Below are positions 1,988-38,116 of a DNA stretch of 38,116 bases, piece by piece. Each line of letters begins with the position of its first letter. The first letter of the stretch is position 1. Origin of the DNA: a virus; IMG/VR virus record IMGVR_UViG_3300014960_000001, positions 1 to 38,116 of that record. One strand, 5' to 3'. The position numbers and the translations under genes are program-made. A model generated the notes under the pieces. The model ran no database searches, was not told where the DNA came from, and saw nothing but the letters and a program-made list of their open reading frames with translations.

Positions 1988-3485
1988 CGGTGGCCTTCCC
2001 TTCCAGCGCCCTGATCCGCATCGGCGTATCGTCCGAATGATTCAGTACCCAGGCACGGCGGCGGCTTGAGCCAAGACGCTGCGCCCGCGGCATGTTGGTC
2101 GACATGTCCAGATTGCCCCACACGGTATAGGTCTGGTAGTCGTCATCGCTATAGGAAAGCTCGATGTTCGAAGTCGTCGACTGTTTGTCGCCAATGATCC
2201 GCAGCTCTTCCCATGTCTTGCGATTGGATGTTCCAAGGTCCATGGAATCCAACTGCATCAGCGCGGTGAACGTCGTGCCGGCATCCTTGAATGACAGCGC
2301 AGACGGATTCATGGAATAGACGATGCCGGTGGTCAGGCTGTTGGAAATGCAGTAATTCACCATCGTTCCGCCCTTGGACACGCCGACACACTTGTACCAG
2401 GGAGCCGTCGAGCTTGACCATTCGTGCCACATCTTGTCCTCGACACAAAACACCATGGCGGTGGTCAGTGCCTTGACGATGACGAACGAACGGCCGTAGA
2501 AGCGGATGGTGGTCAGCGTGATATTCGATGCGCCCGCAAGGATCAGGATGGCATCGATTTCAGGTGTGGAAATGCGCCCGATGCCGCCGTCGTACTGGAA
2601 TATCGACAGGCCGCCTTGAGGCGACGAACCGCACCAGAACGTGGTGTCTGCGATCTGCGCAATAGCATCGGCCGAGACTGCGCCGACACGCTGCGTCATC
2701 GATGGAACCTTGGAGAATGGGAATGGCGTCAGGCCGGCGTTCTGGAAGAATTCGACAGACTCTGTGCCGAACGCCATGATCAGGTTTCTGTGCCGGACAC
2801 ACCCGACGCCAAGGTCGGGATAGGAATTGGCCGAGCCGAAGCTGGTGGCCGTCCAGCTGGTGACGCTGTTCAGGTCTGAAGCCCACAGCGTCCCGGTGGT
2901 GTCCATGATGACGGCGTAACCGTCCATGTGGGCGAACGTGCCGGCAAGCGTCCTGCCTGCATTGCCGGGGAAGTCGGCGTCGGCAATTTTCGTTACCGTC
3001 CCTGTCGGAACGTCGTAATACCAGGCCGTGTTATCGGTGCTGGTGATGGTAAGCGTCGGCGTGGATGAAACGAACGTCTCGCTGATGCCGGTGGCTTTGC
3101 CGGTGATCGTGCCGAGCGACGTGGTGGTGTTGTAGATGGTGGAATTGGTGGCACCAAAGGCCGATATAACGCTGTCGCCTGTGCTGTAGCCTGTCCATAT
3201 CAGGATGGCATTGCCGATGGCCGCTGAGCCGGATGTGATGCTGGCAGAGAAACCCGGACGCTTGACCATATAGACGGAAGACTGGCCGGTCACGGCATCC
3301 ACCACCGTCTCGGAAAAGCAATTGATGAACCGTTGATCCTTTGCCGATGCGTCGGTGGTTTTCCCAACCACCATGACGCCAACGATGCCCATGCCGACAT
3401 AGCCTGATGCGGCATTGAGGATGTTGGTGGCTGCGACGCGGTTGTTGATCGAACCGGCGACAGGAATGCGGAACGGCTGGCTCAT
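1974..3485 (-). CDS. Virion structural protein, putative tail tube/nozzle (503 aa from the ATG at 3485)
   Basis: Long ORF in the late operon. The ATG at 3485 overlaps the upstream stop as TAATG. The functional call rests only on size and position downstream of the adaptor-like gene. Confidence 0.55.
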   Translation of the reverse strand: MSQPFRIPVAGSINNRVAATNILNAASGYVGMGIVGVMVVGKTTDASAKDQRFINCFSETVVDAVTGQSSVYMVKRPGFSASITSGSAAIGNAILIWTGYSTGDSVISAFGATNSTIYNTTTSLGTITGKATGISETFVSSTPTLTITSTDNTAWYYDVPTGTVTKIADADFPGNAGRTLAGTFAHMDGYAVIMDTTGTLWASDLNSVTSWTATSFGSANSYPDLGVGCVRHRNLIMAFGTESVEFFQNAGLTPFPFSKVPSMTQRVGAVSADAIAQIADTTFWCGSSPQGGLSIFQYDGGIGRISTPEIDAILILAGASNITLTTIRFYGRSFVIVKALTTAMVFCVEDKMWHEWSSSTAPWYKCVGVSKGGTMVNYCISNSLTTGIVYSMNPSALSFKDAGTTFTALMQLDSMDLGTSNRKTWEELRIIGDKQSTTSNIELSYSDDDYQTYTVWGNLDMSTNMPRAQRLGSSRRRAWVLNHSDDTPMRIRALEGKATVGTS

Positions 3486-4204
3486 TACCAATAACCACCA
3501 ATGAAGATGTTTGACTTCTTCTTGTTGCCCATCACGGCAGCCGGGAAGTCCATCGCCATGCCTTCCTTGTCGAAGTTCTGGCGCTTGACTGACTTCAGCG
3601 ATGTGGCTGCCGTCTTGATCACCAGCGGCGACGGCTGCACGCCGTATTCGGGCGCAATCTCGACAGCCAGGTTGAACCGAAATGCCCGCAGATAGCCGGG
3701 CGGTGCCGTCAGCGATGTCGACAACGACGCAGGCTGTGCAAGCTCTTCAATCGAAATGAAGTGCCACTCAAGTGCCTTGGTCGGAATCGGGTAGAGGTAC
3801 ATGGTTATGTCGGGCATATCCATGTTGACGAACAGCATCTGCGGATAGATGTTGGTCAGGTTCTTCAGGGCGATGGAATCCCATTGCAGTTGGCTGATGA
3901 ACTTGATCGGGAACGACATCTCAATGGCGGCGTCCCGGTAGTAGGTGGATTCCTCAAGCGCCACCGGACGATTTCCGACAAAGTTCCCGGTCGGGCCTAG
4001 CGTGCGGCTTTGGGTATTCGCCGGCCAGGTGAATTGCTGGTCCTGCGTCGCATAGATGCAGAGGCGATCCGTGTTCCAGGCATCGATCATCTGATTCAAT
4101 GCCTCAAGGCCATCGGCCAGCATGGTGGCGCTGGGCGTCTCACCATCGGCAATGACGCCGAGCAACCGGAGCGATCCGGTTATCAGTTCCTGAGCGGTCG
4201 CCAT
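3485..4204 (-). CDS. Putative head-tail adaptor / tail tubular A-like protein (239 aa)
   Basis: The N-terminus ITGSLRLLGVIADGETPSATMLADGLEALNQMIDAWN resembles the N-terminal motif common in podovirus adaptor/tubular proteins. It lies after the capsid genes. Confidence 0.5.
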   Translation of the reverse strand: MATAQELITGSLRLLGVIADGETPSATMLADGLEALNQMIDAWNTDRLCIYATQDQQFTWPANTQSRTLGPTGNFVGNRPVALEESTYYRDAAIEMSFPIKFISQLQWDSIALKNLTNIYPQMLFVNMDMPDITMYLYPIPTKALEWHFISIEELAQPASLSTSLTAPPGYLRAFRFNLAVEIAPEYGVQPSPLVIKTAATSLKSVKRQNFDKEGMAMDFPAAVMGNKKKSNIFIGGYW

Positions 4205-10042: not shown

Positions 10043-10510
10043 TTATGCCGGCGTGATCGTCAGAATATCAGTGCCTGCGCCCTGGAAGTCGATGGTCAGC
10101 GATCCAGTCACGATACTCGCGCTACCCGCCGCGGACAGCTCGATATAGGCGAATGCACGCTTGTTGGCATCGGTATTGTTGAACAAGATGCCGTAGGCGC
10201 CGTTACTGAATCCCGATGCGTTCTGCGGGATGACAATATCGGTCGCGCGCAGGGTAAGAACACCCGCCACGTTCGTCCAGGTGACGGATGCAAGGCTAAT
10301 CGGGCCGGTATAACCACCGCCAATGCCGACTTGGTTGGTGGCGAAGTTGGTCGTGCCAGTGCCGCCCCAATGCGGGACAGCCGTCGTAATAGACGGGACC
10401 GTTGCGGTCGTCACGATGCCAAGCTGCAGCGTGTCGGACGACAGGTTCATCGCCTTGTTGCCGATAGCGAGAAGGCCATCAGCGAACCACTTTATCGAAC
10501 CAGTAGCCAT
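10043..10510 (-). CDS. Virion-module protein (155 aa), unknown function
   Basis: The ATG overlaps the portal stop by 1 nt. Gly/Thr/Ala-rich. Confidence 0.55.
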   Translation of the reverse strand: MATGSIKWFADGLLAIGNKAMNLSSDTLQLGIVTTATVPSITTAVPHWGGTGTTNFATNQVGIGGGYTGPISLASVTWTNVAGVLTLRATDIVIPQNASGFSNGAYGILFNNTDANKRAFAYIELSAAGSASIVTGSLTIDFQGAGTDILTITPA

Positions 10511-12765
10511 TACATTCCGCCTTCGTTAATCGGCTCGTCTTCAATCGTTCCCTCGTACATCGATCCCGAGGGCGCCATGATCTTCATTCGCTTGCGCATC
10601 AATATTTTCGGCAGCGGCGGCTCTTCGGCTTCGTTGTCGAAGTCGCCCTCGACATCCGCCGTCATGGCAGGGGAAGGCGGTGCCATGCGTACCTTCTGCA
10701 GCTCGACGTAGCCCTTCAGCTCTTCGATTTCCTGGTCGGCCTCGATGTTCATGGCCGCGATCTGCACCTTTACTTCGGCATCCTTCTGCGCCTTTTCGAG
10801 CGCCAGACGGGCATCGATCTCGGCTGCCTTCTGCTTCGCCTCGATCTCGGCAGCCAGTTCTGCGGCCTTGATCCTTGCTTGCATTTCAACCTTCTGCATG
10901 TCGGCAGCATTGCCCTGCTTGGCTTCCTGCAGTTGGCGGTGCGCTTCTTCAAGGGCGGCGCCGGTATGGTCGAGCTGCTGCGTGAGAAGCTGCATCTTCT
11001 GCATCACTTCAGGCGGGATCTGCGGCTGTCCCTTCTGCTCCTGCAGCTGCGGCGGCAGCATCTTCGCCAGACGCTCGGCCAGTTGGTCTGCCATCGGGAA
11101 GTCGGCCGCGCGCATGATCAGGTCGCCAGCCACCTGCATCAGCGCAGGATTGCGGCCGGCCATTTCCGTCAGCGCAGCGAACGCTTCTTGGCGTTGTGTC
11201 TGGAATGCCGGGCCAGTGTCAATGACGACGTCGTACTTGCCGACAGTCGGGTTGAAGATGGCCGTCACGTCGCTTTCGCTGATCTCTGACAGGTCGGTAT
11301 GCGGCTGCGGGTGGGCAGGGTCGAGCATCGCCTGGCTCTGCTGGCCATCGAGGCCAAGAATGCGAACGATGCGCGCCGTGTCGTAATACTTCTGGATCAG
11401 GTCGATCAGCACCTTCGCTTCATAGCGCAGCGCCCTCGCCAGGTTGTCAGGGAAGTGGAACGTCGCAATCTCGCCCTGCACCTTGAGGCGCTGGATGCCG
11501 ATGCCCGAACTGGCCTCGCTCTTGATGCCGAAGTTGCTGTTCTGCTGGCCGGAAGCCGCGCGCATCTCTTCGGTAGACAGCTGCAACAGCTGCACCTGGG
11601 CGGCCGGCATGACCGCGGGCTGCTGCCGTTCCGGACGCGGCAGGGCATTCCCAGCCTCGTCATAGGCATTGAATGGCAGATAGGCTTGGTTCTCGACGTT
11701 CGCCGAGCGCCACACATCCTCATAGCCTTCAATGGCCTCTGCGGCAGCCATGTACGGCACCTTGTTCTGCAGGGCCAGCGTCTGGACCGTCTCGGAATAG
11801 GCGAAGTTGACCATGCGCGCCGGGTCTTTCAGGTCGCGCACAATGCCCTTGCGGACAATCTCGCCGTCGACATTCACTTCCTTGCCGACCACCGCAATGA
11901 TGGGCAGGAAGTCGCCGAGCCATTCGGTTTCGTCGATAGGCTCGTCATGGCCACCGACCAGCTTGCACCAGCGCCACTTCTTGACCTCAGTCGGGCGTTC
12001 CTTGACGACAACAGCGCCCGGCGGAAGCTGAGACTTCAGGCACGTCGAGCCGTCATGAAGCAGGCAGGCCGTGTCCTTTTCATACTCGCACCAGAAATAC
12101 TCGGCTCGCCTGAACGTCTCGTCGCTGACCCAATCGGAATGCTTGCCATCGTCGGCCCAGGATTGCGGGTCGATTTCAGGATGCTCGCGCTTGGCCTGTT
12201 CCTTCGTGATGTCCTCGAAGATAAAGCCCCAGTTGGCGTCCGACTTGTCGAGTTCCTTGCAATCCGGGTCGATATAGACAAGGCTCGGATTCGGAACGGC
12301 CTTGATCTTGATGACCTGATTGAAACTGTCCGGCGACTCGTATTCGGTCACGATGCGCCAGTAGCCTTCGCCGCCATAGACGCTGTGCTCGGCGGCCACA
12401 TCGTGCGCCTCATCGGCGGCAGACTGCACCTGGATATTGCGGATCAGGCCGCCGAGGATCTCGGCCGTCTTCTTGTCCGCGCTGTCGTCGGCCGGGCTGA
12501 CCTTAACGGCCGGCCTGTTCTGACGAATGGCGTTGATGATCTGATTACAGTGCTGCGCGGTCAAATTGACCGTCAGGCAAACGCGCTTGTCCAGCTTGCG
12601 CGTGTTCCGGATCTCTTCCGGCCATTGCCAGTAGTTGTCCGAGTCGCCCATGGCAAAGCGGGTGTCCTGCGCGGCCAGCATTCTGGACGCGGAATAGGCT
12701 TCGCGCGCACGCTCGAACCGCAGCTTTGCCTCTTTGACGAGAGGGTTGGCTTCGGACGTGGCCAT
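10510..12765 (-). CDS. Portal protein with a long C-terminal coiled-coil barrel (P22-like)
   Basis: A 751-aa ORF directly after terL, with its ATG at 12765 sharing one base with the terL TGA. The C-terminal ~150 aa are Ala/Glu/Lys/Gln heptad-like, as in the P22 gp1 barrel. Confidence 0.8.
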   Translation of the reverse strand: MATSEANPLVKEAKLRFERAREAYSASRMLAAQDTRFAMGDSDNYWQWPEEIRNTRKLDKRVCLTVNLTAQHCNQIINAIRQNRPAVKVSPADDSADKKTAEILGGLIRNIQVQSAADEAHDVAAEHSVYGGEGYWRIVTEYESPDSFNQVIKIKAVPNPSLVYIDPDCKELDKSDANWGFIFEDITKEQAKREHPEIDPQSWADDGKHSDWVSDETFRRAEYFWCEYEKDTACLLHDGSTCLKSQLPPGAVVVKERPTEVKKWRWCKLVGGHDEPIDETEWLGDFLPIIAVVGKEVNVDGEIVRKGIVRDLKDPARMVNFAYSETVQTLALQNKVPYMAAAEAIEGYEDVWRSANVENQAYLPFNAYDEAGNALPRPERQQPAVMPAAQVQLLQLSTEEMRAASGQQNSNFGIKSEASSGIGIQRLKVQGEIATFHFPDNLARALRYEAKVLIDLIQKYYDTARIVRILGLDGQQSQAMLDPAHPQPHTDLSEISESDVTAIFNPTVGKYDVVIDTGPAFQTQRQEAFAALTEMAGRNPALMQVAGDLIMRAADFPMADQLAERLAKMLPPQLQEQKGQPQIPPEVMQKMQLLTQQLDHTGAALEEAHRQLQEAKQGNAADMQKVEMQARIKAAELAAEIEAKQKAAEIDARLALEKAQKDAEVKVQIAAMNIEADQEIEELKGYVELQKVRMAPPSPAMTADVEGDFDNEAEEPPLPKILMRKRMKIMAPSGSMYEGTIEDEPINEGGM

Positions 12766-14009
12766 CAGCCCATCCATCCGAGGTTGTGAGTGTGAGCGTG
12801 CATGTGATTCGGTTCCTTGTGTTTGATCGGTTTCGCCCGCCTGGCACCTTCACAGGCATAGCGCACCGCATCGATGATGTGGTTGTTCTTGTCCTCTAGG
12901 ATCGGCAACACCTGTCCGGTCATCGGGTCGGTCTTGTACGAGTACATCGTCAGCTCGTCTATCGTGTGCTGACAGCGCGGATGCACGACGATGTCAAACG
13001 ACTTGAGCCACTCGATACCGTCCTCGATGCTTCCGCTGCCCTTGATGGCAGCGCGGATCTTCGGGAAGCCGTTCTTCAGCATGTGGCTGATCGTTTCCGG
13101 CCGGCTGCTGTCCGCCGTGATCGGCCACTTCTCAGCCTCCGGAATGCTCATAAACAGTTCCGGCAGATTCACAATCTCGCAGCCGATGGCATGGGCCTCG
13201 TAGTCGATATAAAGCCGGTTTCCTTCGATAGAGCAGCGCACCAGCACGCTAGGATCAGTTGCGAAGCCCCAGTCAGCGCCAAGGCGGTAAATCGTCCCAG
13301 CGGGCCGATCAAACTCTTCGATGACCCAGTTCTTGAACACCCGCGCTTCGCTGTTGCGCTGGTATTCGCCAAGCCAGATGTGCGCGAACTTGTCCGGGTC
13401 GCGCCGCTGGTCATACTCGAGATCGCGCAGCAGCACATCCGGCAGCCATGGGTTGTCGCGGTAGTTCGCCTTCACCACCACTGCGCCAGGCGGCAGGTTG
13501 TCACCGCGCAGGAACGCATCCACCGGGTCTGTGTCAAGGTTCGGGTTCCAGCTGAACCACAGCTCAGAGCCGTCCTTGCGGATGGTTGGGCGTAGCAGAT
13601 CCAGCGAACGCTGGCTGAGCGACTGCGCTTCCTCGACCCAGGCTATCGAGTAGCCTTCAAGCGACTTGATCGAATCCGCCGTGTGGTTCTGCATGCCCTG
13701 GAAGATGATCTGCCCGCCATGCGGCGTCAGTATCTTGGATTCCTGAACAACGAAGCCCTGCACACCTAGCTGCTCGATCTTCAGTTCAAGCAACTTCTTG
13801 ACAGACTGATTCAGCGACTTCTGTATCTCTCGAACGCACACCACATCCTCGCGCTTCCGCAAGCAGCGTGCGATGACCATTTCGGCAAAGAAGTGCGACT
13901 TGCCGGACCCGCGACCGCCCCAGGCGCCCTTGTAGCGGGCAGGATTCAGAAGGGGAACAAATGCCCGCGCGACCGGAAGGTTCAGCTTGCCGGATCGACT
14001 ATCTGCCAT
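12765..14009 (-). CDS. terL: Terminase large subunit
   Basis: Walker A motif GGRGSGKS near the N-terminus, 414 aa, and a nuclease-type C-terminal half. It lies between terS and portal. Confidence 0.85.
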   Translation of the reverse strand: MADSRSGKLNLPVARAFVPLLNPARYKGAWGGRGSGKSHFFAEMVIARCLRKREDVVCVREIQKSLNQSVKKLLELKIEQLGVQGFVVQESKILTPHGGQIIFQGMQNHTADSIKSLEGYSIAWVEEAQSLSQRSLDLLRPTIRKDGSELWFSWNPNLDTDPVDAFLRGDNLPPGAVVVKANYRDNPWLPDVLLRDLEYDQRRDPDKFAHIWLGEYQRNSEARVFKNWVIEEFDRPAGTIYRLGADWGFATDPSVLVRCSIEGNRLYIDYEAHAIGCEIVNLPELFMSIPEAEKWPITADSSRPETISHMLKNGFPKIRAAIKGSGSIEDGIEWLKSFDIVVHPRCQHTIDELTMYSYKTDPMTGQVLPILEDKNNHIIDAVRYACEGARRAKPIKHKEPNHMHAHTHNLGWMG

Positions 14010-22293: not shown

Positions 22294-22761
22294 ATGGCTT
22301 CACTTAATTTTGACGCTAGCAAAGTCGCACCGCAGGAAGGTTTCACCGTCATTCCCGCTGGCACCTACATCGCACAGATCGAGGAATCCGAGATCAAAGC
22401 GACCAAGTCCGGCACCGGCCAGATGCTGAAGCTGCGCTGGAAGATTCTTGACGGCCAGCACAAGAACCGCGTCGTGTTCGGAAATCTGAACATCGTCAAC
22501 CAGAATCCCGAAGCAGAGCGCATCGGCCAGTCGCAGCTCTCAGCCCTTTGCCACGCGGTCGGCGTCCTGCAGCTCAAGGACACCTCGCAGCTCCATAACC
22601 GGCCGTGCAAGATCAAGGTCAAGGTGCGCGTCGATGAGTCGGGCAAGTACGGCGACCAGAACGAGGTCAGCGGCTTCGAGGCGGCGCCTGGCGTTGCGGC
22701 TGCTCCGACGGCTGCCGCACCGGCTGCCGGTTCCGCTCCTTGGGCCAAGAAGGCTGCGTGA
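22294..22761 (+). CDS. DUF669-like single-strand DNA-binding protein partner of Sak4
   Basis: Contains the PAGTYIAQI...KATKSGTGQMLKLRWKILDG pattern typical of DUF669. The RBS is AAGGAG. Confidence 0.6.
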   Translation: MASLNFDASKVAPQEGFTVIPAGTYIAQIEESEIKATKSGTGQMLKLRWKILDGQHKNRVVFGNLNIVNQNPEAERIGQSQLSALCHAVGVLQLKDTSQLHNRPCKIKVKVRVDESGKYGDQNEVSGFEAAPGVAAAPTAAAPAAGSAPWAKKAA

Positions 22762-23813
22762 TGGCTGCAGTGCCAACCCCGCTGCATACCGTGGCTGCTT
22801 CCGTCTACGACTGGTGGAAGCAGCGCGGTGACTCCGAAGCGGAGCGTCCTTATTTGGGCGCCTCCGTTATCGGAGGCCCATGCGAACGCGCGCTCTGGTA
22901 CGGATTCCGCTGGGCCGAAGTCCGCAAGTTCGACGGCCGCCTGTATCGCCTGTTTGAGCGCGGCCGGAATGAAGAAGCGGTGGTCGTGGAAGAACTGCGC
23001 GGCACCGGCTGCGAAGTATCCGACACCGATCCGCATGGCAATCAATGGGGCTTCGTAGCCCTTGGCGGCCACTTCCGCGGCCATATGGATGGCGCAGTGC
23101 GCGGCACGCCGTATGGCCCGAAATCATGGGCGGTGCTGGAGATAAAGACGCATTCGGCCAAGTCGTTCAAGACGCTGACCGACAAGGGCGTGCAAGTAAG
23201 TCACCCCACGCACTTCGCACAGATGCAGATTTACATGGGCCAGTTCGGCATCGACCGCGGCCTGTATTACGCCGTCTGCAAGGACAACGATGCCATCCAT
23301 ACCGAGTGGCTGCACTTCGATCAGGACGCCTACGACAAACTGATGGCGCGGGCCTCGCGCATCATTGGCGCACAAGAACCGCCCGACCGCATCAGCCAGG
23401 ATTCGAGCTGGTTCGAGTGCAAGTGGTGCGACTACCAGGAAATATGCCATGGCACGGCCGCACCGCGGGCAACGTGCAGAACGTGCGCGCATGCGACGCC
23501 AGAACTCGACGGCACGACAGGGCTTTGGAGCTGCGCCAAAGATAATCGGTACTCCGGAACAGAAGCGCAAATGATCGGATGCAATGAGCATCGCTATATC
23601 CCTATCTTGCTTGAGCGCTTTGCCGACTACCAGGGAACGCCTGATGGTGCGAACCCTTGCTACAAAAACAAGCTGACGGGAAACACCTTCGTCAATGGGG
23701 CAGCCCCAGGCTACGCATCGACCGAAATAAGGGCAGCCGCAGACAAGCGCGCACTGGGAGATCCAGGCGTCGATGAGCTGCGTTCTACGTTCGACGCGAA
23801 GGTGGCGGCGTGA
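22761..23813 (+). CDS. PD-(D/E)XK exonuclease, Cas4/RecB-like with a Cys cluster (350 aa from the ATG at 22761)
   Basis: Contains GHMDG...LEIKT (D..ExK) and CKWCDYQEIC, plus the N-terminal Cys in GGPCERALW. The track start at 22740 is a TTG inside the previous gene. Confidence 0.7.
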   Translation: MAAVPTPLHTVAASVYDWWKQRGDSEAERPYLGASVIGGPCERALWYGFRWAEVRKFDGRLYRLFERGRNEEAVVVEELRGTGCEVSDTDPHGNQWGFVALGGHFRGHMDGAVRGTPYGPKSWAVLEIKTHSAKSFKTLTDKGVQVSHPTHFAQMQIYMGQFGIDRGLYYAVCKDNDAIHTEWLHFDQDAYDKLMARASRIIGAQEPPDRISQDSSWFECKWCDYQEICHGTAAPRATCRTCAHATPELDGTTGLWSCAKDNRYSGTEAQMIGCNEHRYIPILLERFADYQGTPDGANPCYKNKLTGNTFVNGAAPGYASTEIRAAADKRALGDPGVDELRSTFDAKVAA

Positions 23814-25423
23814 ATTCGATCACCCTCCGCCCCTATCAGGAACGCGCCATGAATGAGCTTCTGGCGTGGTTCGAGGCCAACGATGGGCATCCAATACTCG
23901 ATGCCGCGGTTGGCTCTGGCAAGTCGGTCATGCTGGCGTGGCTGTGCCAGCACGCGCTGAAGAACTGGCCACAGACACGCATCATCATGCTGGTGCCGAC
24001 GCGCGAGCTGCTGCAGCAGAATCTCGGCAAGCTGCTGGCCATCTGGCCTGAATCACCTGTTGGTGTCGTATCCGCCTCAGTAGGTCGCAAGGAACACGGC
24101 AACGCCATCACCATCGCAACCATCGGCTCGCTCTACAAGCACGCTGCAAAGATCGGTCACGTTGATCTGCTGATTGTCGATGAGTGCCACCTGATTCCTG
24201 GCGGCGATATGGGCATGTACCGCTCGTTTATCGCAGACCTGTCCAGATACTGCCCGGAACTTCGCGTCATCGGCGCGACGGGCAGTCCGTTCCGCGGCAA
24301 TGGCGTCTGGCTGACCTCCGTCGAGGATGCGATTTTTACTGACATCGCCTGTCGCATAACGATGGACGAACTTCTGGCCGCCGGCTACCTGGCGCCGCTG
24401 ACAACGGAATCGACAGCCACCAAGCTCGATGCGGACGGCGTGCGAATGGTCGGCGGCGATTATGTGGTGTCGGAACTTGCCAAAGCCATTGATCGGCCGG
24501 AATTGGTCACCGCCGCCTGCCGCGAGGCTATCCGCTTGGCTGCAGATCGCCAGAAGTGGCTGGTTTATTGCGTCACCGTCGAGCACGCCGGTCATGTATG
24601 CGACGAGCTGCGCCAGCTTGGCGTTGAATGCGACATGGTGACCGGCGAGACGCCGAAGGCCGAGCGGGCAGCCTTGATCGAGGCGTTTCGCAACGGTCAA
24701 CTGCGCTGCCTGGTGAGCGTGGCCGTGCTGACCACCGGATTTGATGTTCCTGACGTCGACTGCATCGTGCTGCTTCGTAATACGCAGTCGCCCGTTCTTT
24801 ATGTCCAGATCATGGGCCGCGGTATGCGGGTTGCTCCAAGCAAGGCCGACTGCCTAGTGCTCGACTTCACCGACACCATCGAGCGGCTTGGGCCGGTCAA
24901 CAAGGTCAAAGGGCGCCTGCCACGCAAGAACAAGGGCGAAGCGCCGGTCAAGGTCTGCGACGAGTGCGGTGCGCTCAATCCCATATCTGCAACAGAGTGC
25001 AAGCTGTGCGGCACGTTGTTTGTGGTGGAAGAAGTTGATCCGCACTCGACAAAAGCCAGTAGCGCGCTGGTGCTCGACATTGGTAAGCCGCGGATTACGA
25101 CCTACGAAGTGACGCACGTCGACTACGGGCTGCACCGCAAGCCGGGCAAGCCTGACTCGATGCTGGTGACCTACTGGAGCGGTATTCGTCAGGTGGCGCG
25201 CGAGTGGGTGTGCTTTGAGCATGACAACGAATGGGCAAGGAATCGCGCTGCTGCATGGTGGGCGCATCGTTGCCAAAACGGTGTAACGCCAACCGTTGCA
25301 GACGCCCTTCATCTGATCAACGAAGAAGGTCTGCAGCTTCGTGAGCCGATGGCGATCATCGTTAATGAATCCGAACAGTATCCAAAAATTATCAACTACT
25401 GCTGGGAAAGGAAAGCGGCATGA
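23810..25423 (+). CDS. SF2 DEAD/DEAH-box DNA helicase with a C-terminal zinc ribbon
   Basis: Contains GSGKS, DECH, TGSP, helicase-C motifs (QIMGRGMR) and CDECG...CKLCG. The start is GTG, in a GTGA overlap. Confidence 0.8.
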   Translation: MNSITLRPYQERAMNELLAWFEANDGHPILDAAVGSGKSVMLAWLCQHALKNWPQTRIIMLVPTRELLQQNLGKLLAIWPESPVGVVSASVGRKEHGNAITIATIGSLYKHAAKIGHVDLLIVDECHLIPGGDMGMYRSFIADLSRYCPELRVIGATGSPFRGNGVWLTSVEDAIFTDIACRITMDELLAAGYLAPLTTESTATKLDADGVRMVGGDYVVSELAKAIDRPELVTAACREAIRLAADRQKWLVYCVTVEHAGHVCDELRQLGVECDMVTGETPKAERAALIEAFRNGQLRCLVSVAVLTTGFDVPDVDCIVLLRNTQSPVLYVQIMGRGMRVAPSKADCLVLDFTDTIERLGPVNKVKGRLPRKNKGEAPVKVCDECGALNPISATECKLCGTLFVVEEVDPHSTKASSALVLDIGKPRITTYEVTHVDYGLHRKPGKPDSMLVTYWSGIRQVAREWVCFEHDNEWARNRAAAWWAHRCQNGVTPTVADALHLINEEGLQLREPMAIIVNESEQYPKIINYCWERKAA

Positions 25424-26039: not shown

Positions 26040-26212
26040 GACAGATCCTCGCAGATGCTGCCGTGCTGTTCGTCGTGGCGCTTGGATATTTGGCGGTCAA
26101 CGACAGCTTCGCCACAGACAAAGGCGCGAGAGAGCAGCGGCGGGCTACGGAAATTATGTTTGAAAGCTGCGTGGATAGCTGCCGCCAGGGCTGCGCGAAG
26201 GTGCCGAAATGA
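26036..26212 (+). CDS. Small membrane-anchored Cys-rich protein (58 aa)
   Basis: Translated by hand: MRQILADAAVLFVVALGYLAVNDSF...CVDSCRQGCAKVPK. ATGA overlaps occur at both ends. Confidence 0.4.
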   Translation: MRQILADAAVLFVVALGYLAVNDSFATDKGAREQRRATEIMFESCVDSCRQGCAKVPK

Positions 26213-26538
26213 CCGGCCGCCGCGACTACCACTGGCAGCTCATTCGGATGCTCATGGACGGCGCCCAATTATCTGCTGCGCAGATCACCGAATCATTGGG
26301 CTGCAACCGCGGGAACACCGAGCGGATCATCAACAACATGCACCATCATGGCTTGATTTATGTGATCCGCTACAGCAGCACCGCCACCGCAATTCATCGT
26401 GTGTGGGCGTGGCGTGACGGCGATCAGGAAGATGTGCCGCGGCCAAATCGAGTGAGCAATTCGGATCGGTGCGCGAAGTATCGGTGGAATCAGAAAGTGA
26501 AGGCCGGCGAAGTGCGGCTGGGTGTGTGGGGGCTATGA
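26209..26538 (+). CDS. Winged-helix/HTH-like protein (109 aa) immediately upstream of the methyltransferase
   Basis: The LSAAQITESLGCNRGNTERIINNM segment looks like an HTH. ATGA coupling occurs on both sides. Confidence 0.5.
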   Translation: MTGRRDYHWQLIRMLMDGAQLSAAQITESLGCNRGNTERIINNMHHHGLIYVIRYSSTATAIHRVWAWRDGDQEDVPRPNRVSNSDRCAKYRWNQKVKAGEVRLGVWGL

Positions 26539-27482
26539 ATGAGCTGGCTCTTTTCGCAGGCGCTGGTGGCGGAATACTCGGCGGCCATCTGCTCGGATGG
26601 AGAACCGTCTGTGCCGTCGAGTTCAATTCCTACGCCGCAAGCGTACTGTGCGCCCGACAAAATGACGGAATTCTGCCGCCTTTCCCGATTTGGGATGACG
26701 TTCGCACCTTTGACGGACATCAATGGCGAGGGCGTGTTGATGTCGTTTCTGGAGGCTTTCCATGCCAAGACATCAGCATCGCTGGGGGGGGGGCAGGACT
26801 CTCAGGAGAACGATCTGGACTCTGGGTGGAAATGGCCCGGATCATTGGCGAAGTACGACCCAGCTTCGTGTTCGTGGAAAACTCGCCAATGCTCACTCAT
26901 CGAGGACTTGGCACCGTTCTCGGAGATTTGGCCGAGATGGGGTTTGATGCGAAATGGGGAGTTGTGTCTGCTGCCGATACCGGCGCACCTCACCTCAGAG
27001 AGCGAATCTGGATTGTGGCCGACACCCTGCGCGAACGAGCGGGGGGGGGGAATACACCAGGATCACACCTAAGTTTGACTAAAGCAGTCCACGGATGGAT
27101 CAAAGGGCGACCAGGACAAGCGAGAGAAGAATGCAGAATTCCAACACCAACCGTATGCGGGAATTACAACAGGAAAGGATCGTCACCAACATCGGGCGAC
27201 GGTCTGGCGACGTTCGTCAAGATGTTTCCTACGCCAACCGTAGCGATGACCAAAGGCTCATCGGGGGGGGCAATGACGAGAAAAACAGGACGCAGTCGAT
27301 CGAACGACAGATTGGATTACGCGACGGAAGGAGCGCATCCAGAGAATGGCCGCCTGAACCCGACGTGGGTCGAGTGGCTCATGGGGTGGCCGCAAGGGTG
27401 GACAGACTTAAAGCCCTTGGCAATGGGCAAGTTCCGCGAGTGGCAGCAACAGCATGGCAACTTCTCAGAGGTGAGTGAATGA
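26535..27482 (+). CDS. DNA (cytosine-5) methyltransferase, frame open as assembled (315 aa); reads through three poly-G tracts as Gly runs
   Basis: Motif I FAGAGG, motif IV GFPCQ (26757-26768), motif VI-like FVENS, motif VIII-like HLRERIWIVA. Then come IPTPT/FPTPT modules and the motif IX-like LNPTWVEWLMGWPQGWT. The motif X sequence is not in this frame. Confidence 0.8.
   Translation: MNELALFAGAGGGILGGHLLGWRTVCAVEFNSYAASVLCARQNDGILPPFPIWDDVRTFDGHQWRGRVDVVSGGFPCQDISIAGGGAGLSGERSGLWVEMARIIGEVRPSFVFVENSPMLTHRGLGTVLGDLAEMGFDAKWGVVSAADTGAPHLRERIWIVADTLRERAGGGNTPGSHLSLTKAVHGWIKGRPGQAREECRIPTPTVCGNYNRKGSSPTSGDGLATFVKMFPTPTVAMTKGSSGGAMTRKTGRSRSNDRLDYATEGAHPENGRLNPTWVEWLMGWPQGWTDLKPLAMGKFREWQQQHGNFSEVSE
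26539..27072 (+). CDS. Overprinted +1-frame ORF inside the methyltransferase gene (177 aa as assembled), candidate second protein
   Basis: Its own ATG lies 4 nt after the MTase ATG. The composition is protein-like rather than a typical shadow ORF (Trp/Cys/Phe/Asp/Glu/Lys present, few Arg). It ends in SGLWPTPCA just before tract 2, and the same module recurs in frame 0 downstream. Confidence 0.45.
   Translation: MSWLFSQALVAEYSAAICSDGEPSVPSSSIPTPQAYCAPDKMTEFCRLSRFGMTFAPLTDINGEGVLMSFLEAFHAKTSASLGGGQDSQENDLDSGWKWPGSLAKYDPASCSWKTRQCSLIEDLAPFSEIWPRWGLMRNGELCLLPIPAHLTSESESGLWPTPCANERGGGIHQDHT
26784..26793 (+). repeat. Poly-G tract 1 (G10)
   Basis: Counted directly: gct + 10 g + ca. It lies 15 nt downstream of the PCQ codons. 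Confidence 0.95.
27041..27050 (+). repeat. Poly-G tract 2 (G10)
   Basis: Counted directly: the block 27041-27050 is all g, flanked by c and a. Confidence 0.95.
27083..27478 (+). CDS. Third-frame ORF encoding the methyltransferase motif X C-terminus (ATG at 27095)
   Basis: The frame-2 translation ends ...WPPEPDVGRVAHGVAARVDRLKALGNGQVPRVAATAWQLL, which is the canonical GN.VP motif X context. A TAA at 27080-27082 separates it from the catalytic N-terminal half. Confidence 0.45.
   Translation, partial: SSPRMDQRATRTSERRMQNSNTNRMRELQQERIVTNIGRRSGDVRQDVSYANRSDDQRLIGGGNDEKNRTQSIERQIGLRDGRSASREWPPEPDVGRVAHGVAARVDRLKALGNGQVPRVAATAWQLLRGE
27263..27270 (+). repeat. Poly-G tract 3 (G8)
   Basis: Counted directly: tc + 8 g + c. 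Confidence 0.95.
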
Positions 27483-29896: not shown

Positions 29897-30071
29897 ACTG
29901 ATAGAGCTGACCGGCTACCACACCAGGCCGAAGTGCCTGTCGTGGCTGACGGTCAACGGCTATCGCTACCATGTCGCAAGCGACGGCTGGCCGCGTGTGC
30001 TAAGGTCTGCCGTTGTCGAGCGCCTTGGCGGCAAGCAAGAGGCGCCGGAACCGCAATTGAGGTTCGGATGA
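29877..30071 (+). CDS. DUF4224-like small DNA-binding protein, probable excisionase/recombination directionality factor
   Basis: MFLTRDELIELTGYHTRPKCLSWLTVNGYRY... matches the DUF4224 pattern. It lies directly upstream of, and overlaps, int. Confidence 0.6.
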   Translation: MFLTRDELIELTGYHTRPKCLSWLTVNGYRYHVASDGWPRVLRSAVVERLGGKQEAPEPQLRFG

Positions 30072-31009
30072 AACTTCCTGCGAAGATGCACTTCAAGCAT
30101 GGCGCGTACTACTACGTCCACCAGAACAAGTGGACGAAGTTGAGCCGCGACTATCCGGAAGCACTTCGCAAGTATTCATCGATGGTATCGAGCGTCGGCG
30201 TCGGCATGGAATCCCTGCTGGATCGCTTCCTGTTGCGTCAAACAGGCGAGGTGGCTACCAGCACCTTGGCGGTAAATAGAAACGCCGTGAAGAGGCTAAA
30301 AACCATATTTGCCGAGTTCTCGCCGGAACAGGTGCAGCCAAAGCACATCTTCGCTTTGCGGAACGAATACAAGGCAAAGCCGGCCTGGGCGAATAGGTTC
30401 CTATACGTCCTGAAGGGTGCCTTCAATCTCGCCATCGAGGAAGGATTGATCGTCGCCAATCCGGTGCGGGACGTGACCAACTTGAAAGAAAAGAAGCGCG
30501 ACAGGTACATCACCACCGAGGAATTCAACGCCATCAGGGAACAGGCCAACGAATCCATGAAAGCCATCATGGATGTTGCCTACCTGACCGGCCAGCGCAT
30601 CGGCGATGTTCTGGCGATCAAGCTAAAAGACTTGCGAGAGGATGGGATTTATTTCCGGCAGAGCAAGACCGGCACCGAGCTGATTGTCGGATGGTCGCCG
30701 GAACTGAGGAAGGCCGTGGCGGATGCGAAGCAGATTCATGCTTCGGTGAAGGGATTCTCGCTATTCAGAACGCGCCAAGGCAATCAGCTGGCCTACAGGA
30801 CGGTTCATGACTTCTGGAACAACGCGAGATTAAAGGCTGGCCTGGTGGATTGCAGAATCCACGACCTGAGGGCGAAGGCGGGAACCGACGCCAGGAAGCA
30901 GGGCCAGGACAGCAAGGCGCTGCTCGGCCACAAATCTGACAGCTCACACAATCGCTATATCCGCGATCCGGATGTGCCGATTGTCGAGGCAGTCAGGAAG
31001 AAAACTTAG
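30068..31009 (+). CDS. int: Tyrosine integrase
   Basis: Catalytic signature: R in TGQRIGD, HDLRAKAGT (H-x-x-R), and LLGHKSDSSHNRY (H...Y). 313 aa from the ATG at 30068. Confidence 0.85.
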   Translation: MKLPAKMHFKHGAYYYVHQNKWTKLSRDYPEALRKYSSMVSSVGVGMESLLDRFLLRQTGEVATSTLAVNRNAVKRLKTIFAEFSPEQVQPKHIFALRNEYKAKPAWANRFLYVLKGAFNLAIEEGLIVANPVRDVTNLKEKKRDRYITTEEFNAIREQANESMKAIMDVAYLTGQRIGDVLAIKLKDLREDGIYFRQSKTGTELIVGWSPELRKAVADAKQIHASVKGFSLFRTRQGNQLAYRTVHDFWNNARLKAGLVDCRIHDLRAKAGTDARKQGQDSKALLGHKSDSSHNRYIRDPDVPIVEAVRKKT

Positions 31010-34560: not shown

Positions 34561-36363
34561 TCAACGGACGGAACGCCCGTTAGAAACCCCTACAGCCGTG
34601 ACGGGCGATAGATAAGGAACGTCCTGGCTTAACAGCTTCATGAATGCATTCGTCGCTGGCGGATTGAGAGCTGCCCGCGCATCCGTTGGATTCAGAACCA
34701 TTTCAGCCAGCTTGCTTTGCACCGCAGGTTCTGACACGCCCCGATAAAGCATGTTCGGAACTTTCATGAGCGTCTGCAGCAGAGCATTTTCACCGAACGA
34801 TTCAGGAAGACCGAGCGGACCTAGAATTTGCCGCAGGATGTTATTGCTGGCGATATTCTGAGCAGTTGGCGAACCGGGCGCCATGCCAAGCTGTGCTGCA
34901 GCTGCTGTGCGGGCCATCTGGTCGCCGACGCCATTGATCGTCGCCATCTGGTCTGGCGTCATCACGGCACCCATAGGCTTGCGGAATCCGGTCACTGATT
35001 TGACGGTATCCGCATCGCCGCGCACCGCATTGGCGAACATGCTCGGCCTTGAGCCAGGCATCGCAATGCCGAAGTCCTCAAGCGCCGGGATCAGTTTGTC
35101 ATAGAGGTGCTGGCCGATCTTCTGCTGATCGATGGGCTTGCTAAGTGCCTCGAATTCAGAGCGGGCAATCCCATATTCCGGAATCTTCGATTCAAGCCAA
35201 TTCAAGAACGCAGACTTCGCATCCTTCTCTGCGGCCGAAGCACTTCGCGCTGCGCCAGTTGTTGGATCAGCAATTAGCGCCGAGTCAATGCCCATCTTCA
35301 GATCGTGAAGGCCAGAACCGAGATAAGCAGGGTTCTTATCGATTGTTCCAGTCACTGGATTAAAAATTGAGCGAGTGAGCTGGAACGGAGCACCACGATT
35401 CGCCGCATTGTTGGTCGCCGCACGCATGCCATCCTGAATGATTGGCCGTGCCAGAAGATCATCGAGCGTTGCATCGCCATCAACGACGGCCTGCTTCGCC
35501 TTGGCATAGTTCGCCTGCACAGCTGCTTCTCTGGCATCAATAGCCGCCTGCTTCTCTGCGTCGCTGCCGGCGATATTTCCAACGGCTGTCTTTATGGCTG
35601 CTTTGTTTGCGCCCTGCCGCGTAGCCAGTGCGCCGGCCGTCTTTGGTTCGGCGTTCTGTGCCGCACGCTGCAATATCGCCAAGCCAGGGTCAAGTGTGAC
35701 TTCGGCTGTCGTTGGTGCAACGCCGGCCACGGATGGAACGAACGAATCAATGGCTGACGTTGCTGCCGCGGGGTCAGTAGCAAAGCGCCGGATTGTTTCT
35801 TCAGCAAGGCGTCGTTGGCCAGCGTCGGTGAATGGATCAACCAAGGCCGCTTTGCCAACCCTGGCAACACCGCTTAGCAGCGGAATGACAGAATTTCCGC
35901 CACCTGAGAACAGCGCACCAGCAGCACGATCACTCGCATCACCTGGCGTTGTCGCTGCGCCATAAACGCCACCAACACTCGCTGCCTGCGGAATGGATTG
36001 TGGCTTTGATAGACCTTCGCCGGTATATCGAAGCGCGCGAGCAAGCAGAGGGTATTTGGCGGCAAGTTGTGAAAAGCCAGCAAGCATTCGGCCGCCACCA
36101 ACCATCGTCGATAGATCGGTGATGCCGGCGCCGACTTGAGCAGCGCCACGCCGCATCAGAGCTTCGTCCGCAGGTTCCGGCGTCCTTAGCCCAAGCGTGC
36201 CAACGTCTTCAGCACGTTTGCCAGCACCAGCGGCGAGCAGTTCGAAAGTCGACATATCTTTCGTCGGGTCATCGGCTGCAATAGGCGCTGATCGCCACGC
36301 TTTTGTTTTGTCGCCACCAAATCCAGCCTTGGCATCAACTACAGGAGCAGTTTGCCATCCCAT
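34561..36363 (-). CDS. Internal virion/ejection protein (600 aa)
   Basis: A large Ala/Gly-rich ORF, last of three large genes after the tail genes. The call is positional. Confidence 0.55.
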   Translation of the reverse strand: MGWQTAPVVDAKAGFGGDKTKAWRSAPIAADDPTKDMSTFELLAAGAGKRAEDVGTLGLRTPEPADEALMRRGAAQVGAGITDLSTMVGGGRMLAGFSQLAAKYPLLARALRYTGEGLSKPQSIPQAASVGGVYGAATTPGDASDRAAGALFSGGGNSVIPLLSGVARVGKAALVDPFTDAGQRRLAEETIRRFATDPAAATSAIDSFVPSVAGVAPTTAEVTLDPGLAILQRAAQNAEPKTAGALATRQGANKAAIKTAVGNIAGSDAEKQAAIDAREAAVQANYAKAKQAVVDGDATLDDLLARPIIQDGMRAATNNAANRGAPFQLTRSIFNPVTGTIDKNPAYLGSGLHDLKMGIDSALIADPTTGAARSASAAEKDAKSAFLNWLESKIPEYGIARSEFEALSKPIDQQKIGQHLYDKLIPALEDFGIAMPGSRPSMFANAVRGDADTVKSVTGFRKPMGAVMTPDQMATINGVGDQMARTAAAAQLGMAPGSPTAQNIASNNILRQILGPLGLPESFGENALLQTLMKVPNMLYRGVSEPAVQSKLAEMVLNPTDARAALNPPATNAFMKLLSQDVPYLSPVTAVGVSNGRSVR

Positions 36364-37652
36364 TATGGCTTCCTTCTTGTCGTGCCATCTGGTGCGACGA
36401 ACTGCGTTCCAGATGGGAGTTTGTCGTAATCTGCATCAGACGTAACCTTTGGCAATCCGCCAGGCTGCGAAGTCACGCCGGCCTTCTTTGCGTTCTGCTC
36501 GTAGGACGGACCAGCTTGGATCTTCAAGGTTTCTTCGGTCAATCGACGCATTTCTGCCTTCTGAGCCTTTACCTCTTCAGAATCGCCCGGCCGCGGGAAG
36601 AACATCGGACCATAGGTGTCATATTCGCTCTTGCTGATTGCCGCGCCAGACTCCTTGCGAAGCACCGCGGCGATGTAGTTCTTCTCGGCATTCATGAACT
36701 GCTGCATCTTCGGCGACACCAGATAGTTTCCGGCAACCGGCGTACTTCCTGCGGCGAATTCGGACGCCTTTGGTGCGAACGGTTTTCCGTCCGCGTCCTT
36801 GATCGAATCCAAGTCCTTCAATGCCTGCCCGGCGCGCAGCGCGAATGCTGTTGCATTTCCCTGCGTTTCGGTCAGCGGCTTGCCAGGAAGTCCTGGAATC
36901 TGAGTAACCGATCCGGTCGGATTTTCCTTGGTCGGCGCAAACACGAAGCCCCCCGCATCCGCATTGAATACCGGCTTCGGATTGTTGAAGTGGCGCTCAG
37001 ACTGCGCAAGCGATTCTCTCGCCCGCGCGTCGGTCATGTTCTGGCCGCGGATGGTGGTGTTGTTACTGGCTACGCTGTCGGGCGTCTGAGTCTTGGTGAT
37101 TGGCGTTGCACCTTGCAACGGAAGTCCGGTCAGGTTGTCCATCGGCCGAATATCGCCGCCTGTATCCGCCCAATGAACATCGGGCTTGGCACCGAACTGA
37201 GACACTTCCTGCGTGCCGTCCTTGTAGGTCATGACGCGCACAGGCTGACCATTGCGCATTTCTGTCGTTACTTCCTTGAGTTCCGGCATCAGCTTGATTC
37301 CAGTATCGCGCATCTTCATGGCTTGGTCGGTTTTCCCGTTGGCCTCGTAGATGTCGGCGATGTCGAAATGCTGCTGAGCCAGCGCCCGAGCAGAACTACC
37401 AGGCGAGCTACCACCGCCAGAGAATATCGAGGCGCCAGACTGCCCCGATGCACCCGCAGCACGACGCTTTGCAATCTCGTCACGAATAGCCTTGTCGCGC
37501 TCAATAGAATCGACAAGGACGGAATTCTGCAGCGCCTCTTTCTGCAACCCCATCAGCTGCGCGAGCTTGTTTAGGCCACCAGCTTCATTCTGCCGATTGA
37601 TCTGATCCTGCTGCAGGTATCCACCGAGGAACGGGACATCAGTTAGCGCCAT
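36363..37652 (-). CDS. Internal virion/ejection protein (429 aa from the ATG at 37652)
   Basis: A GCGGAGG RBS precedes the ATG at 37652. The track start at 37658 is a TTG. Confidence 0.55.
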   Translation of the reverse strand: MALTDVPFLGGYLQQDQINRQNEAGGLNKLAQLMGLQKEALQNSVLVDSIERDKAIRDEIAKRRAAGASGQSGASIFSGGGSSPGSSARALAQQHFDIADIYEANGKTDQAMKMRDTGIKLMPELKEVTTEMRNGQPVRVMTYKDGTQEVSQFGAKPDVHWADTGGDIRPMDNLTGLPLQGATPITKTQTPDSVASNNTTIRGQNMTDARARESLAQSERHFNNPKPVFNADAGGFVFAPTKENPTGSVTQIPGLPGKPLTETQGNATAFALRAGQALKDLDSIKDADGKPFAPKASEFAAGSTPVAGNYLVSPKMQQFMNAEKNYIAAVLRKESGAAISKSEYDTYGPMFFPRPGDSEEVKAQKAEMRRLTEETLKIQAGPSYEQNAKKAGVTSQPGGLPKVTSDADYDKLPSGTQFVAPDGTTRRKP

Positions 37653-37654
37653 GG

Positions 37655-38116
37655 TCAATAGCCTCCGCTTACCTTGTTAGGATTCATCGCCTGCATCAGC
37701 GCGGTCATCTGCTGCGCGGCAGTCTGCGGCGGATTGAAGATGTTGTTGGCGCCGGACCCGAGGGCATTCCACATGTTCGAGCTGGACCCGATGGCCGAAT
37801 TCTCTGCCTGCGGAGCAGCCGAATTGAACGACGACAGGCCGCCGAAGTTGGCAAGGTTCTTCTTCTCAGTGTCGAGCTGGCCCCACAGATTGTTCGTGGC
37901 GTAGTTCTGGCCCTGCTGCAGGGCGTTGCCGGACCCGAACGGGTTACCCTGCATTGAGAGCGAACGCATCAGCGAGTTGGTGCCTTGATCGACAGACGCC
38001 TTGACGCCAGGCGAGGTCAGGAACGACGACGGATCTGCATAGAGAGCCGCCAGTTTGTCGCGGTAAGGCTGACCCATGGCCGCGTATTTGTCGGCCGCTG
38101 CGGTGTAGGCATCGGC
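37655..38116 (-). CDS. C-terminal part of the junction-spanning 647-aa internal virion protein (see 1..1581)
   Basis: The track ORF 37655..38077 starts at an internal Met. The frame stays open to the window end and is continuous with 100..1581 through the overlap. Confidence 0.8.
   Translation of the reverse strand, partial: ADAYTAAADKYAAMGQPYRDKLAALYADPSSFLTSPGVKASVDQGTNSLMRSLSMQGNPFGSGNALQQGQNYATNNLWGQLDTEKKNLANFGGLSSFNSAAPQAENSAIGSSSNMWNALGSGANNIFNPPQTAAQQMTALMQAMNPNKVSGGY
38018..38116. repeat. Terminal direct repeat, copy 2 (identical to 1..99)
   Basis: Perfect 99-nt identity with the window start. Confidence 0.95.

Follow-up and report, generated by a model that had tools for sequence, protein, structure and literature searches.

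Two overlapping reading frames conserved in a family of phage C5 DNA methyltransferase genes, and a proposed two-chain enzyme

A C5 DNA methyltransferase gene of a temperate phage, found in the IMG/VR virus record IMGVR_UViG_3300014960_000001, was analysed together with its relatives. The window, that is the whole 38,116-bp contig (57% GC), carries the gene at 26469..27482 on the + strand. Judged by how consistently it stays open among relatives, a second, +1 frame of this gene is real and conserved in thousands of phages and prophages, and the substitution pattern at methyltransferase-synonymous sites shows selection at the protein level for the +1 product. The overlap is, on the diversity along the gene, reciprocal: the methyltransferase frame is the passenger over the 3' half. 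We consider it fairly probable, from the organisation of these genes, that one C5 methyltransferase gene is read in two frames and that the resulting chains, alpha (frame 0) and beta (frame +1), form one enzyme in which beta would be the recognition chain.

The window gene and its second frame

The frame-0 open reading frame (ORF) at 26469..27482 (+) encodes 337 residues from a GTG codon. An alternative start, the ATG at 26535, gives 315 residues, and this 315-residue ORF (P0121) is the contig's own gene call at the locus. The catalytic half of the methyltransferase, segment A (26535..27040, +), has motif I as FAGAGGG, motif IV as FPCQDIS, motif VI as ENSP and motif VIII as APHLRERIWIV, all in one frame. 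It matches phrog_363, phrog_116 and PF00145, the last over residues 26-184 of the 337-residue ORF and profile positions 4-160 with an E value of 7.8e-32. Segment A of relatives aligns with M.HhaI residues 16-171.

The +1 ORF (26539..27072, +; 177 codons) covers the overprinted N-terminal half of beta, referred to here as N', and the first of the WPTP modules. Its 177-residue product, MSWLFSQALVAEYS...WPTPCANERGGGIHQDHT, contains 4.0% each of Trp, Cys and Phe and 12.4% Ser, and ends 7 codons past the second of the three G tracts described below. The two starts share an ATGAATG (26535..26541, +) that consists of the alpha ATG at 26535, the TGA of an upstream ORF at 26536-26538 in the +1 frame, and the beta ATG at 26539. 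The upstream ORF (26209-26538, +; 109 residues) has no PHROG match. Since its TGA lies inside the ATGAATG, ribosomes terminating there could reinitiate at either start.

The original prediction had described a protein-like +1 ORF overprinted on a frame 0 that carries motifs I, IV, VI and VIII of a C5 methyltransferase. The motifs are present as described, and the +1 product is protein-like by its profile match and its thousands of homologous clusters. All coordinates and peptide strings given with it proved correct (ATGs at 26535 and 26539, the +1 ORF at 26539..27072, IPTPTV and FPTPTV in frame 0).

Conservation of both frames

When the synonymous codons of the window's methyltransferase frame were reshuffled with this genome's codon usage, the +1 frame stayed stop-free in 576 of 20000 trials (2.9%). 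Same-strand shadow frames of other genes in the window reach 141 codons (+1) and 190 codons (+2) without a stop, so that the window alone is merely suggestive. The stretch 3031..3501, with which the +1 ORF had originally been compared, contains stops on the + strand.

Eighty IMG/VR loci were fetched by similarity to the methyltransferase N-half alone, and 74 of them, all unique, entered the openness test. The +1 frame is stop-free over 158 codons in 74/74 of these loci; 3.4 would be expected with the family's codon usage, and under uniform codon usage the expectation is 0.0006 per locus. The +2 frame is stop-free in 0/74. Conversely, when loci were retrieved with the +1 protein, no stop interrupted frame 0 across the downstream segment B in 74/74, with 2.8 expected. 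Both frames are open for 233-398 codons in essentially all of the 80 IMG/VR loci, about 72 of 76 being classed as dual, and the third frame closes after 25-51 codons.

The same arrangement is found well beyond these loci. By blastn the 5' part of the gene has 75-81% nucleotide identity to sequences in Acinetobacter, Salmonella, Pseudomonas, Ralstonia, Klebsiella and other phages. Both frames are gene-long in all four loci inspected (304/298, 246/240, 244/247 and 239/242 codons), which come from Acinetobacter, Salmonella, Pseudomonas and environmental phages, AT-rich Acinetobacter phages included. Genomes in GTDB show the dual arrangement in 57-64 of 73 classifiable loci, with hosts in the Pseudomonadota, Verrucomicrobiota (including Akkermansia), Planctomycetota, Acidobacteriota, Desulfobacterota and Bacteroidota and in several lineages of metagenome-assembled genomes (MAGs). 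The gene occurs in 4 of 5426 complete E. coli genomes, where PGAP annotates the methyltransferase frame alone. The frame chosen in GenBank varies: in Pseudomonas phage VB_PaD_phPA-G (locus L004, 1505-2233) it is the +1 frame, as a 'hypothetical protein', and in loci L001, L002 and L003 it is frame 0, as a 'DNA methyltransferase'.

The first 470 nucleotides of the gene have a median identity of 72% across hosts that differ widely in GC content and phylum. Relatives range from Acinetobacter to Akkermansia, Planctomycetota and Patescibacteria MAGs, a host range that comes in part from the binning of short contigs into MAGs and may be unreliable.

The beta protein family and selection on it

The window +1 ORF matches phrog_1008 over residues 32-173 (E 7.8e-14), and the +1 protein of L001 matches it with E 5e-28 over profile positions 35-281 of 329. 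The PHROG label of this family is 'DNA methyltransferase'. Matches to the +1 ORF number 4444 among clusters at 90% identity and 7453 among those at 50%, and 3063 of the latter have E values below 1e-10. The family proteins are 170-500 residues long and almost universally start with MSW; nearly all matches listed start at the first residue of the protein. The +1 product matches no Pfam, NCBIfam or PADLOC model.

The starts themselves are conserved. At the beta start position 187 of 203 unique relatives have ATG; at the alpha start position 115 have ATG, 35 GTG, 20 TTG and 33 a non-start codon. The two ORFs start 4 nucleotides apart (NTGAATG), and a Shine-Dalgarno-like purine run lies upstream in 167 of the 203.

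Four-fold degenerate codons of the methyltransferase frame have a fixed third base where the +1 residue is conserved. This is seen for GTG (71/71, +1 residue W), GCC (66/66, P), GGG (74/74, G) and CGA (60/60, D), and CCA is nearly fixed (71/74, Q); at the remaining four-fold sites of these sequences, diversity goes as high as 0.6-0.7. Furthermore, the higher the BLOSUM62 score of the beta change that it causes, the more frequent an alpha-synonymous variant is (Spearman rho 0.37, p 7e-10), and the trend is present within transitions and within transversions separately. Homologue searches, a test of +1 openness in related methyltransferase genes and a test for suppressed synonymous variation had all been put forward with the original prediction. 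The outcome was favourable in each: the +1 translation has its PHROG match and thousands of clusters, its frame is stop-free in all 74 related loci of the openness test, and variation in the methyltransferase frame is both suppressed and biased by the +1 product.

Three loci show a variant start. In L057 (1501-2385), L078 (1453-2433) and L035 (1474-2448) the +1 protein has gained an N-terminal extension of 12-16 residues that re-creates the M-(S/T/A)-W-x-x-S-x-A start motif clear of motif I, and the old, internal copy is degenerate. The methyltransferase frame of these loci bears a distinct extension of its own, MAIQQSTDGLRELALF.

Segments of the gene and the primary frame in each

Which frame is primary was tested by the diversity at each codon position along the gene in relatives. 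Over segment A (motifs I-VIII) the frame-0 third base is the most variable, which makes frame 0 primary there. Over segment B, which consists of the WPTP modules and the block LNPxWVEWLMGWPxGWT, the +1 third base is the most variable. From KA(I/L)GNGQVP onward, in segment C, it is again the frame-0 third base. The primary frame changes from B to C at one exact point, between ...GWTDL and the K of KAIGNGQVP. On this pattern alpha would be made of segment A, a linker merely kept stop-free, and segment C, and beta of the N' that lies over A, then segment B, then a tail free of constraint. In typical relatives motif X is thus in the frame of motifs I-VIII and the motif IX-like block is in the +1 frame.

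The alpha linker, stop-free in the 74/74 relatives chosen on beta, has no other conservation, so that alpha alone would lack a conserved recognition domain. Segment B is hypervariable among phages with near-identical segment A, as expected for a specificity domain. Of 184 loci in which beta was found through its own motifs, 176 have motifs I, IV and VI of alpha intact. The intact alpha motifs beside beta, together with the unconserved linker, support a co-dependence of the two chains.

All motifs stand in one frame solely in two rare relatives, P0145 (L168, 1501-2478) and P0161 (L169, 635-1702). Each has segment A, WPTP modules, WVEWLMGWPxGWT and RLKxIGNGQVP in a single chain, with a spacer of 25-40 residues between the last two. 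The presence of segment B in cis in these proteins argues that it is part of the methyltransferase. AlphaFold2 modelled only the catalytic domain and the X helix of P0145 well (for the X helix the pLDDT, the predicted local distance difference test score, was 81), and Foldseek with this model returned M.HhaI, M.HaeIII and DNMT1. Motif IX of M.HhaI is LHPRECARVMGYPDSY; the beta block L-N-P-x-W-V-E-W-L-M-G-W-P-x-G-W-T agrees with it in length and key residues, by pattern.

P0161 holds WVEWLMGWPPGWT and, about 25 residues on in the same frame, WWDTEHDLPRVAVGVPARAHRLRCIGNGQVP, which is similar to what dual genes encode in the other frame of the first block. These paired blocks suggest that the overlap was either resolved by duplication or created by deletion between offset repeats.

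The window copy as a frame-swapped variant

The window gene departs from the typical layout. Tract 2, a run of ten G at the catalytic/recognition junction (27041..27050, +), is one base short or two bases long relative to the normal form and is the point at which the frames are swapped. With tract 2 out of phase, frame 0 runs from A straight into segment B, and motif X falls in the third frame. Segment B (27051..27482, +), homologous to the C-half of relatives' +1 proteins, is therefore found in frame 0 here. It comprises the WPTP-type modules IPTPTV (27138-27155, +) and FPTPTV (27225-27242, +), the pattern-based motif IX-like block LNPTWVEWLMGWPQGWT (27354-27404, +) and a tail. GNGQVP is in frame 2, so that the IX-like block and motif X are not in one frame. 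A third-frame ORF of 127 codons with its own ATG (27095..27478, +) contains a remnant of the alpha linker and segment C with motif X, LKALGNGQVPRVAATAWQLL (27407-27466, +). A similar ORF, starting soon after a stop, is present in L251, another gene in which A and B are joined in a hybrid ORF.

The original prediction had assigned the +1 ORF and the downstream frame-0 sequence to one protein, and relatives do hold both in one +1 ORF of 230-350 codons. One G added at tract 2, as it had proposed, gives a 313-residue beta that reads through the WPTP modules to ...NPTWVEWLMGWPQGWTDLKPL..., and the restored junction, WPTPCANERGGGNTPGSHLSLTKAV, resembles the modules of relatives. As the window copy stands, the ATG at 26535 would yield a 315-residue fusion of catalytic and recognition parts without motif X, and the ATG at 26539 a 177-residue N' piece.

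Two further tracts lie in the gene. Tract 1 (G10, 26784..26793, +) is within motif IV-V (IAGGGAG) and is in phase for both frames. Tract 3 (G8, 27263..27270, +) is within segment B (KGSSGGA), and L251 has a G8 at the equivalent place. The three tracts, all within about 490 bp, are the sole runs of at least seven G in the 38 kb of the window, which has no run of at least seven C.

For comparison among relatives, tract positions in every locus were counted from the motif-I landmark ELALFAGAGGG as zero, and enrichment was assessed in 212 unique loci (186 kb of gene, 530 kb of flanks). Runs of at least nine G or C number 12 in the gene and 2 in the flanks (p 5e-6); long runs are present in only about 6% of the loci. 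At the tract-1 site (+242/243) a clade of 83-91% identity carries runs of 10, 11, 12 or 15 G. The G11 form at +242, found in six contigs, is intact, and in the two G12 contigs alpha is cut at 87 codons and the beta start is fused to the remainder of alpha. The A/B junction (+488 to +505) has C12, C13, C14 or G11 in relatives, the C12 locus being intact and the C14 and G11 loci swapped. Thus at +488 L115 has C12 with both ORFs intact, and the homologous L252 has C14 and is swapped. The swap point coincides with a run in six genes (the window gene, L252, L253, L126, L171 and L222). Going by position, enrichment and length polymorphism, this pattern is the signature of hypermutable contingency tracts. 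Frame-swapped loci are rare, with 3 of 76 IMG/VR loci and one A-to-B hybrid among the GTDB loci; in Pseudomonas, Acinetobacter and E. coli genomes, ORFs of this hybrid kind bear the annotation DNA cytosine methyltransferase.

Because the primary frame changes exactly at the C TTA AAG of the B/C boundary, a -1 ribosomal frameshift there was also considered, and was rejected as a general mechanism. The site is forced by dual coding and is absent in L251, and in typical members such a shift is needless, the downstream frame being reached directly from the alpha start.

Genomic setting

The methyltransferase locus sits between a helicase gene (23810-25423) and an integrase gene (29933-31009). The window also encodes a Cas4-type exonuclease (22740-23813), a portal protein (10510-12777, on the - strand according to the antisense pairing below), a primase and a tail fibre. 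No megablast match was found among GenBank phages for the first 25 kb of the window. Three pairs of long antisense ORFs were seen, 5124-6272 (+) with 5013-6239 (-), 11299-12789 (+) with 10510-12777 (-), and 36303-37574 (+) with 36363-37658 (-). These antisense ORFs, of 382-496 codons, face structural genes and are probably GC-rich shadow frames.

A proposed two-chain enzyme and the alternatives

We propose the following model. Frame 0 would supply motifs I-VIII, the stop-free linker and motif X, which are the elements of the large catalytic domain. The +1 frame, starting 4 nucleotides later, would supply N', the variable WPTP modules and the motif IX-like block, the elements of the small DNA-recognising domain. 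Alpha and beta would then assemble into one enzyme, as in M.EcoHK31I, with N' aiding the association; both the assembly and the role of N' are proposed on the precedent of that enzyme. The recurrent G/C runs would probably make frame swaps frequent and reversible, which would amount to phase variation of methylation. We infer the translation of both frames, the heterodimer, the N' role and the switching within a population.

The alternatives differ mainly in what they make of the +1 product. That the second frame is a chance shadow in a GC-rich gene, without a coding role, has next to no probability. The share of window reshuffles that stay open, the shadow frames of 140-190 codons in other genes and the mostly disordered AlphaFold2 prediction for N' would fit a chance frame, but on the comparative data it is excluded. 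The +1 frame is open in all 74 relatives, AT-rich Acinetobacter phages among them, where 3.4 were expected, its ATG is conserved, conserved +1 residues coincide with invariant synonymous sites, and the variants follow BLOSUM62. An independent overlapping gene is a more serious rival and, in our judgement, an unlikely one. Alpha would then work alone, with the region from motif VIII to X recognising DNA, and the +1 product would have an unrelated function, for example in regulation or counter-defence. The protein-level selection on N' itself would be explained, as would the re-creation of M-x-W-x-x-S-x-A away from motif I in L057, L078 and L035, the N' ORF of about 175-205 codons that persists in single-frame and hybrid genes, and the lack of methyltransferase likeness in family libraries bar the PHROG label. 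Yet the +1 C-half lies in cis between motifs VIII and X in single-frame relatives, and in cis in many annotated 'DNA cytosine methyltransferases'; the alpha linker is merely stop-free, the wobble position there being that of the +1 frame; and beta is accompanied by intact alpha catalytic motifs (176/184). For N' taken by itself, an unrelated function is possible. Recoding would instead produce a single chain through a +1 shift after motif VIII and a -1 shift after ...GWTDL, by ribosomal frameshifting or by polymerase slippage on homopolymers, the long ORFs being by-products. The strongly selected segments, read in order, do give the canonical enzyme, and the B-to-C switch is exact at C TTA AAG, which contains an A_AAG motif. 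Single-frame relatives exist, several loci have G/C runs at the A/B junction, and motif X is intact in the -1 frame in 9/9 hybrid genes with DNA. Recoding nevertheless leaves unexplained why the +1 frame has no stop as far back as a conserved ATG (187/203) and why frame 0 is open through B (74/74). The C TTA AAG follows from both amino-acid sequences and lacks the canonical X XXY YYZ form, hybrid L251 has TTA CAG at the boundary, long runs occur in about 6% of loci, and no conserved +1 shift site follows motif VIII. We regard recoding as quite improbable.

For the window copy there is a separate question, whether its state is a regulated phase variant, or a decayed pseudogene or an error in homopolymer length. 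The latter reading covers this copy alone, is compatible with the two-chain explanation for the family, and seems to us a real possibility, short of the expected answer. With the extra G at tract 2 alpha meets a TAA (27080..27082, +) in the frame that would continue it; beta is restored and alpha is not, so that no single tract change returns the copy to the normal form, and the nearest hybrid, L251, likewise has a stop in that frame. The hybrid ORF is known from one contig (P0121), no other contig of the same phage was found for a comparison of tract-2 length, and swapped forms are a small minority in the family. Against decay or error stand the confinement of three long G runs to one gene in 38 kb, their placement at sites where relatives carry runs, with enrichment and length polymorphism, and a motif X that is still perfectly conserved in the window. 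Because both frames are open end to end, a switch that swaps frames, as distinct from an on/off switch, is conceivable. That the G/C runs act in this way, with a population interconverting the alpha/beta enzyme, the fused chain and a chain of N' plus motif X, is a tentative suggestion and on balance doubtful.

Several points weigh against the two-chain enzyme with beta as its recognition chain, or against taking the window copy as an example of it. Family members are known here from their genes alone. The likeness to M.EcoHK31I is drawn from the published description of its organisation and motif layout, and the literature assigns the target recognition domain (TRD) of that enzyme to alpha, not beta. 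AlphaFold2 gave no confident fold for the +1 protein with 119 homologues (mean pLDDT 56, predicted TM-score 0.26), a model too poor for a fold search; within it the IX-like helix reached pLDDT 81-85 and a beta-hairpin near SWKTxQCSL about 70. Segment B of the single-chain P0145 was likewise modelled without confidence (pLDDT 38-56), so that its assignment as the small domain comes from where it lies, its motif pattern and its variability. Pfam gave no match, even at E up to 10, to the C-terminal fragments, an artificial IX-X fusion among them, and a PDB sequence search with the fusion gave chance matches only, which leaves the motif IX assignment a pattern-based one. Single-frame and hybrid genes, in which B does not rely on it, still keep the N' ORF open, which hints at an N' role of its own. 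The window copy may be defective, and homopolymer lengths in metagenome assemblies may be wrong for any single contig.

Comparison with known systems

The closest known system is M.EcoHK31I of E. coli, a C5 DNA methyltransferase that is a heterodimer (Lee, Kam and Shaw 1995, described in PMC2836561 and PMC3404938). According to these sources another frame within the alpha gene codes for beta, and both chains are needed; alpha has motifs I-VIII together with X, beta has motif IX, and N-terminal truncations of beta progressively weaken its binding to alpha (PMC2836561; PMC3404938). The phage family shares with it the single gene, the two frames and the long second ORF, which in the family is conserved among relatives. 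There are also differences. The beta frame is wholly inside the alpha gene in M.EcoHK31I, whereas in the phage family it starts 4 nucleotides after alpha and ends within a few codons of it. The recognition-type modules are in beta in the phage family and the TRD is in alpha in M.EcoHK31I. M.EcoHK31I belongs to a restriction-modification system, whereas the phage and prophage genes are orphans. The M.EcoHK31I alpha is said to be about 309 residues long, near the 230-350 residues of the phage-family alpha, and its beta reportedly about 176. No homopolymer tracts are reported for M.EcoHK31I in PMC2836561 and PMC3404938.

Other C5 methyltransferases also work as two polypeptides. M.AquI and the artificially split M.SssI, M.HhaI and M.BspRI are cut between the large and small domains (PMC3404938), and their function makes the proposed assembly in trans physically plausible. 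Splits of the M.AquI type are sequential and lie in separate or adjacent genes, with motifs I-VIII in one part and (TRD)-IX-X in the other. The phage family would be split by domain on shared DNA, with motifs I-VIII and X in one chain and the TRD and motif IX in the other.

PolyG tracts occur in phage genes, a Campylobacter phage being an example. Phase variation through simple sequence repeats is known from phasevarions, such as the one controlled by a polyG tract in a Type IIG enzyme of Campylobacter (PMC4889913). The phage family resembles these in having long G/C runs within the methyltransferase ORF that are enriched, at fixed sites and variable in length. In the known phasevarions a slip truncates a single ORF and turns it ON or OFF, whereas in the phage family a slip would exchange the halves of two long ORFs.

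Overprinted genes are well known in viruses, as in the overlaps of the phiX174 type (PMC8227390, PMC3494269). As there, a second frame on the same strand lies on an older gene, and its N' half is predicted to be poorly ordered. Unlike these, the phage overlap is reciprocal and covers the full gene over 230-400 codons, each frame being ancestral over one half, and the two products appear, from their motifs, to be parts of one enzyme. An out-of-frame HNH element has been described in actinophage methylases (PMC11855218); it is an inserted mobile element and not a re-framed part of the methylase.

Implications

No description of this phage family as dual-coding was found in the literature searched. 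The two-frame principle was already known from one enzyme, M.EcoHK31I. What is new is the size of the family, an overlap that is reciprocal and runs the length of the gene, conserved recognition modules placed in the second frame, selection at the protein level on the half that is overprinted, and the association with tracts that swap the frames. If the model is true, few same-strand dual-coding arrangements in phages and bacteria would be as long (230-400 codons) or as widespread, and M.EcoHK31I, until now a curiosity, would stand as founder of a large class. The model would also account for a very large family of 'hypothetical proteins' without a Pfam or NCBIfam model. Annotation with one ORF per locus reports half of the gene, at times the methyltransferase and at times the other frame. 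The reciprocal overlap offers a clean natural system for the study of how overlapping genes originate and are resolved, since the family contains fused, split and swapped forms side by side.

Swapping at the tracts would give phages a new mode of epigenetic phase variation, one open to test. If the frame-swap switch is real, it would be a new form of phase variation giving heritable yet reversible heterogeneity of methylation, which could serve as bet-hedging across hosts with methylation-sensitive and methylation-dependent restriction, and products with altered properties might arise. If the two-chain model is true, predictions of specificity for these orphan methyltransferases should use the +1 frame.

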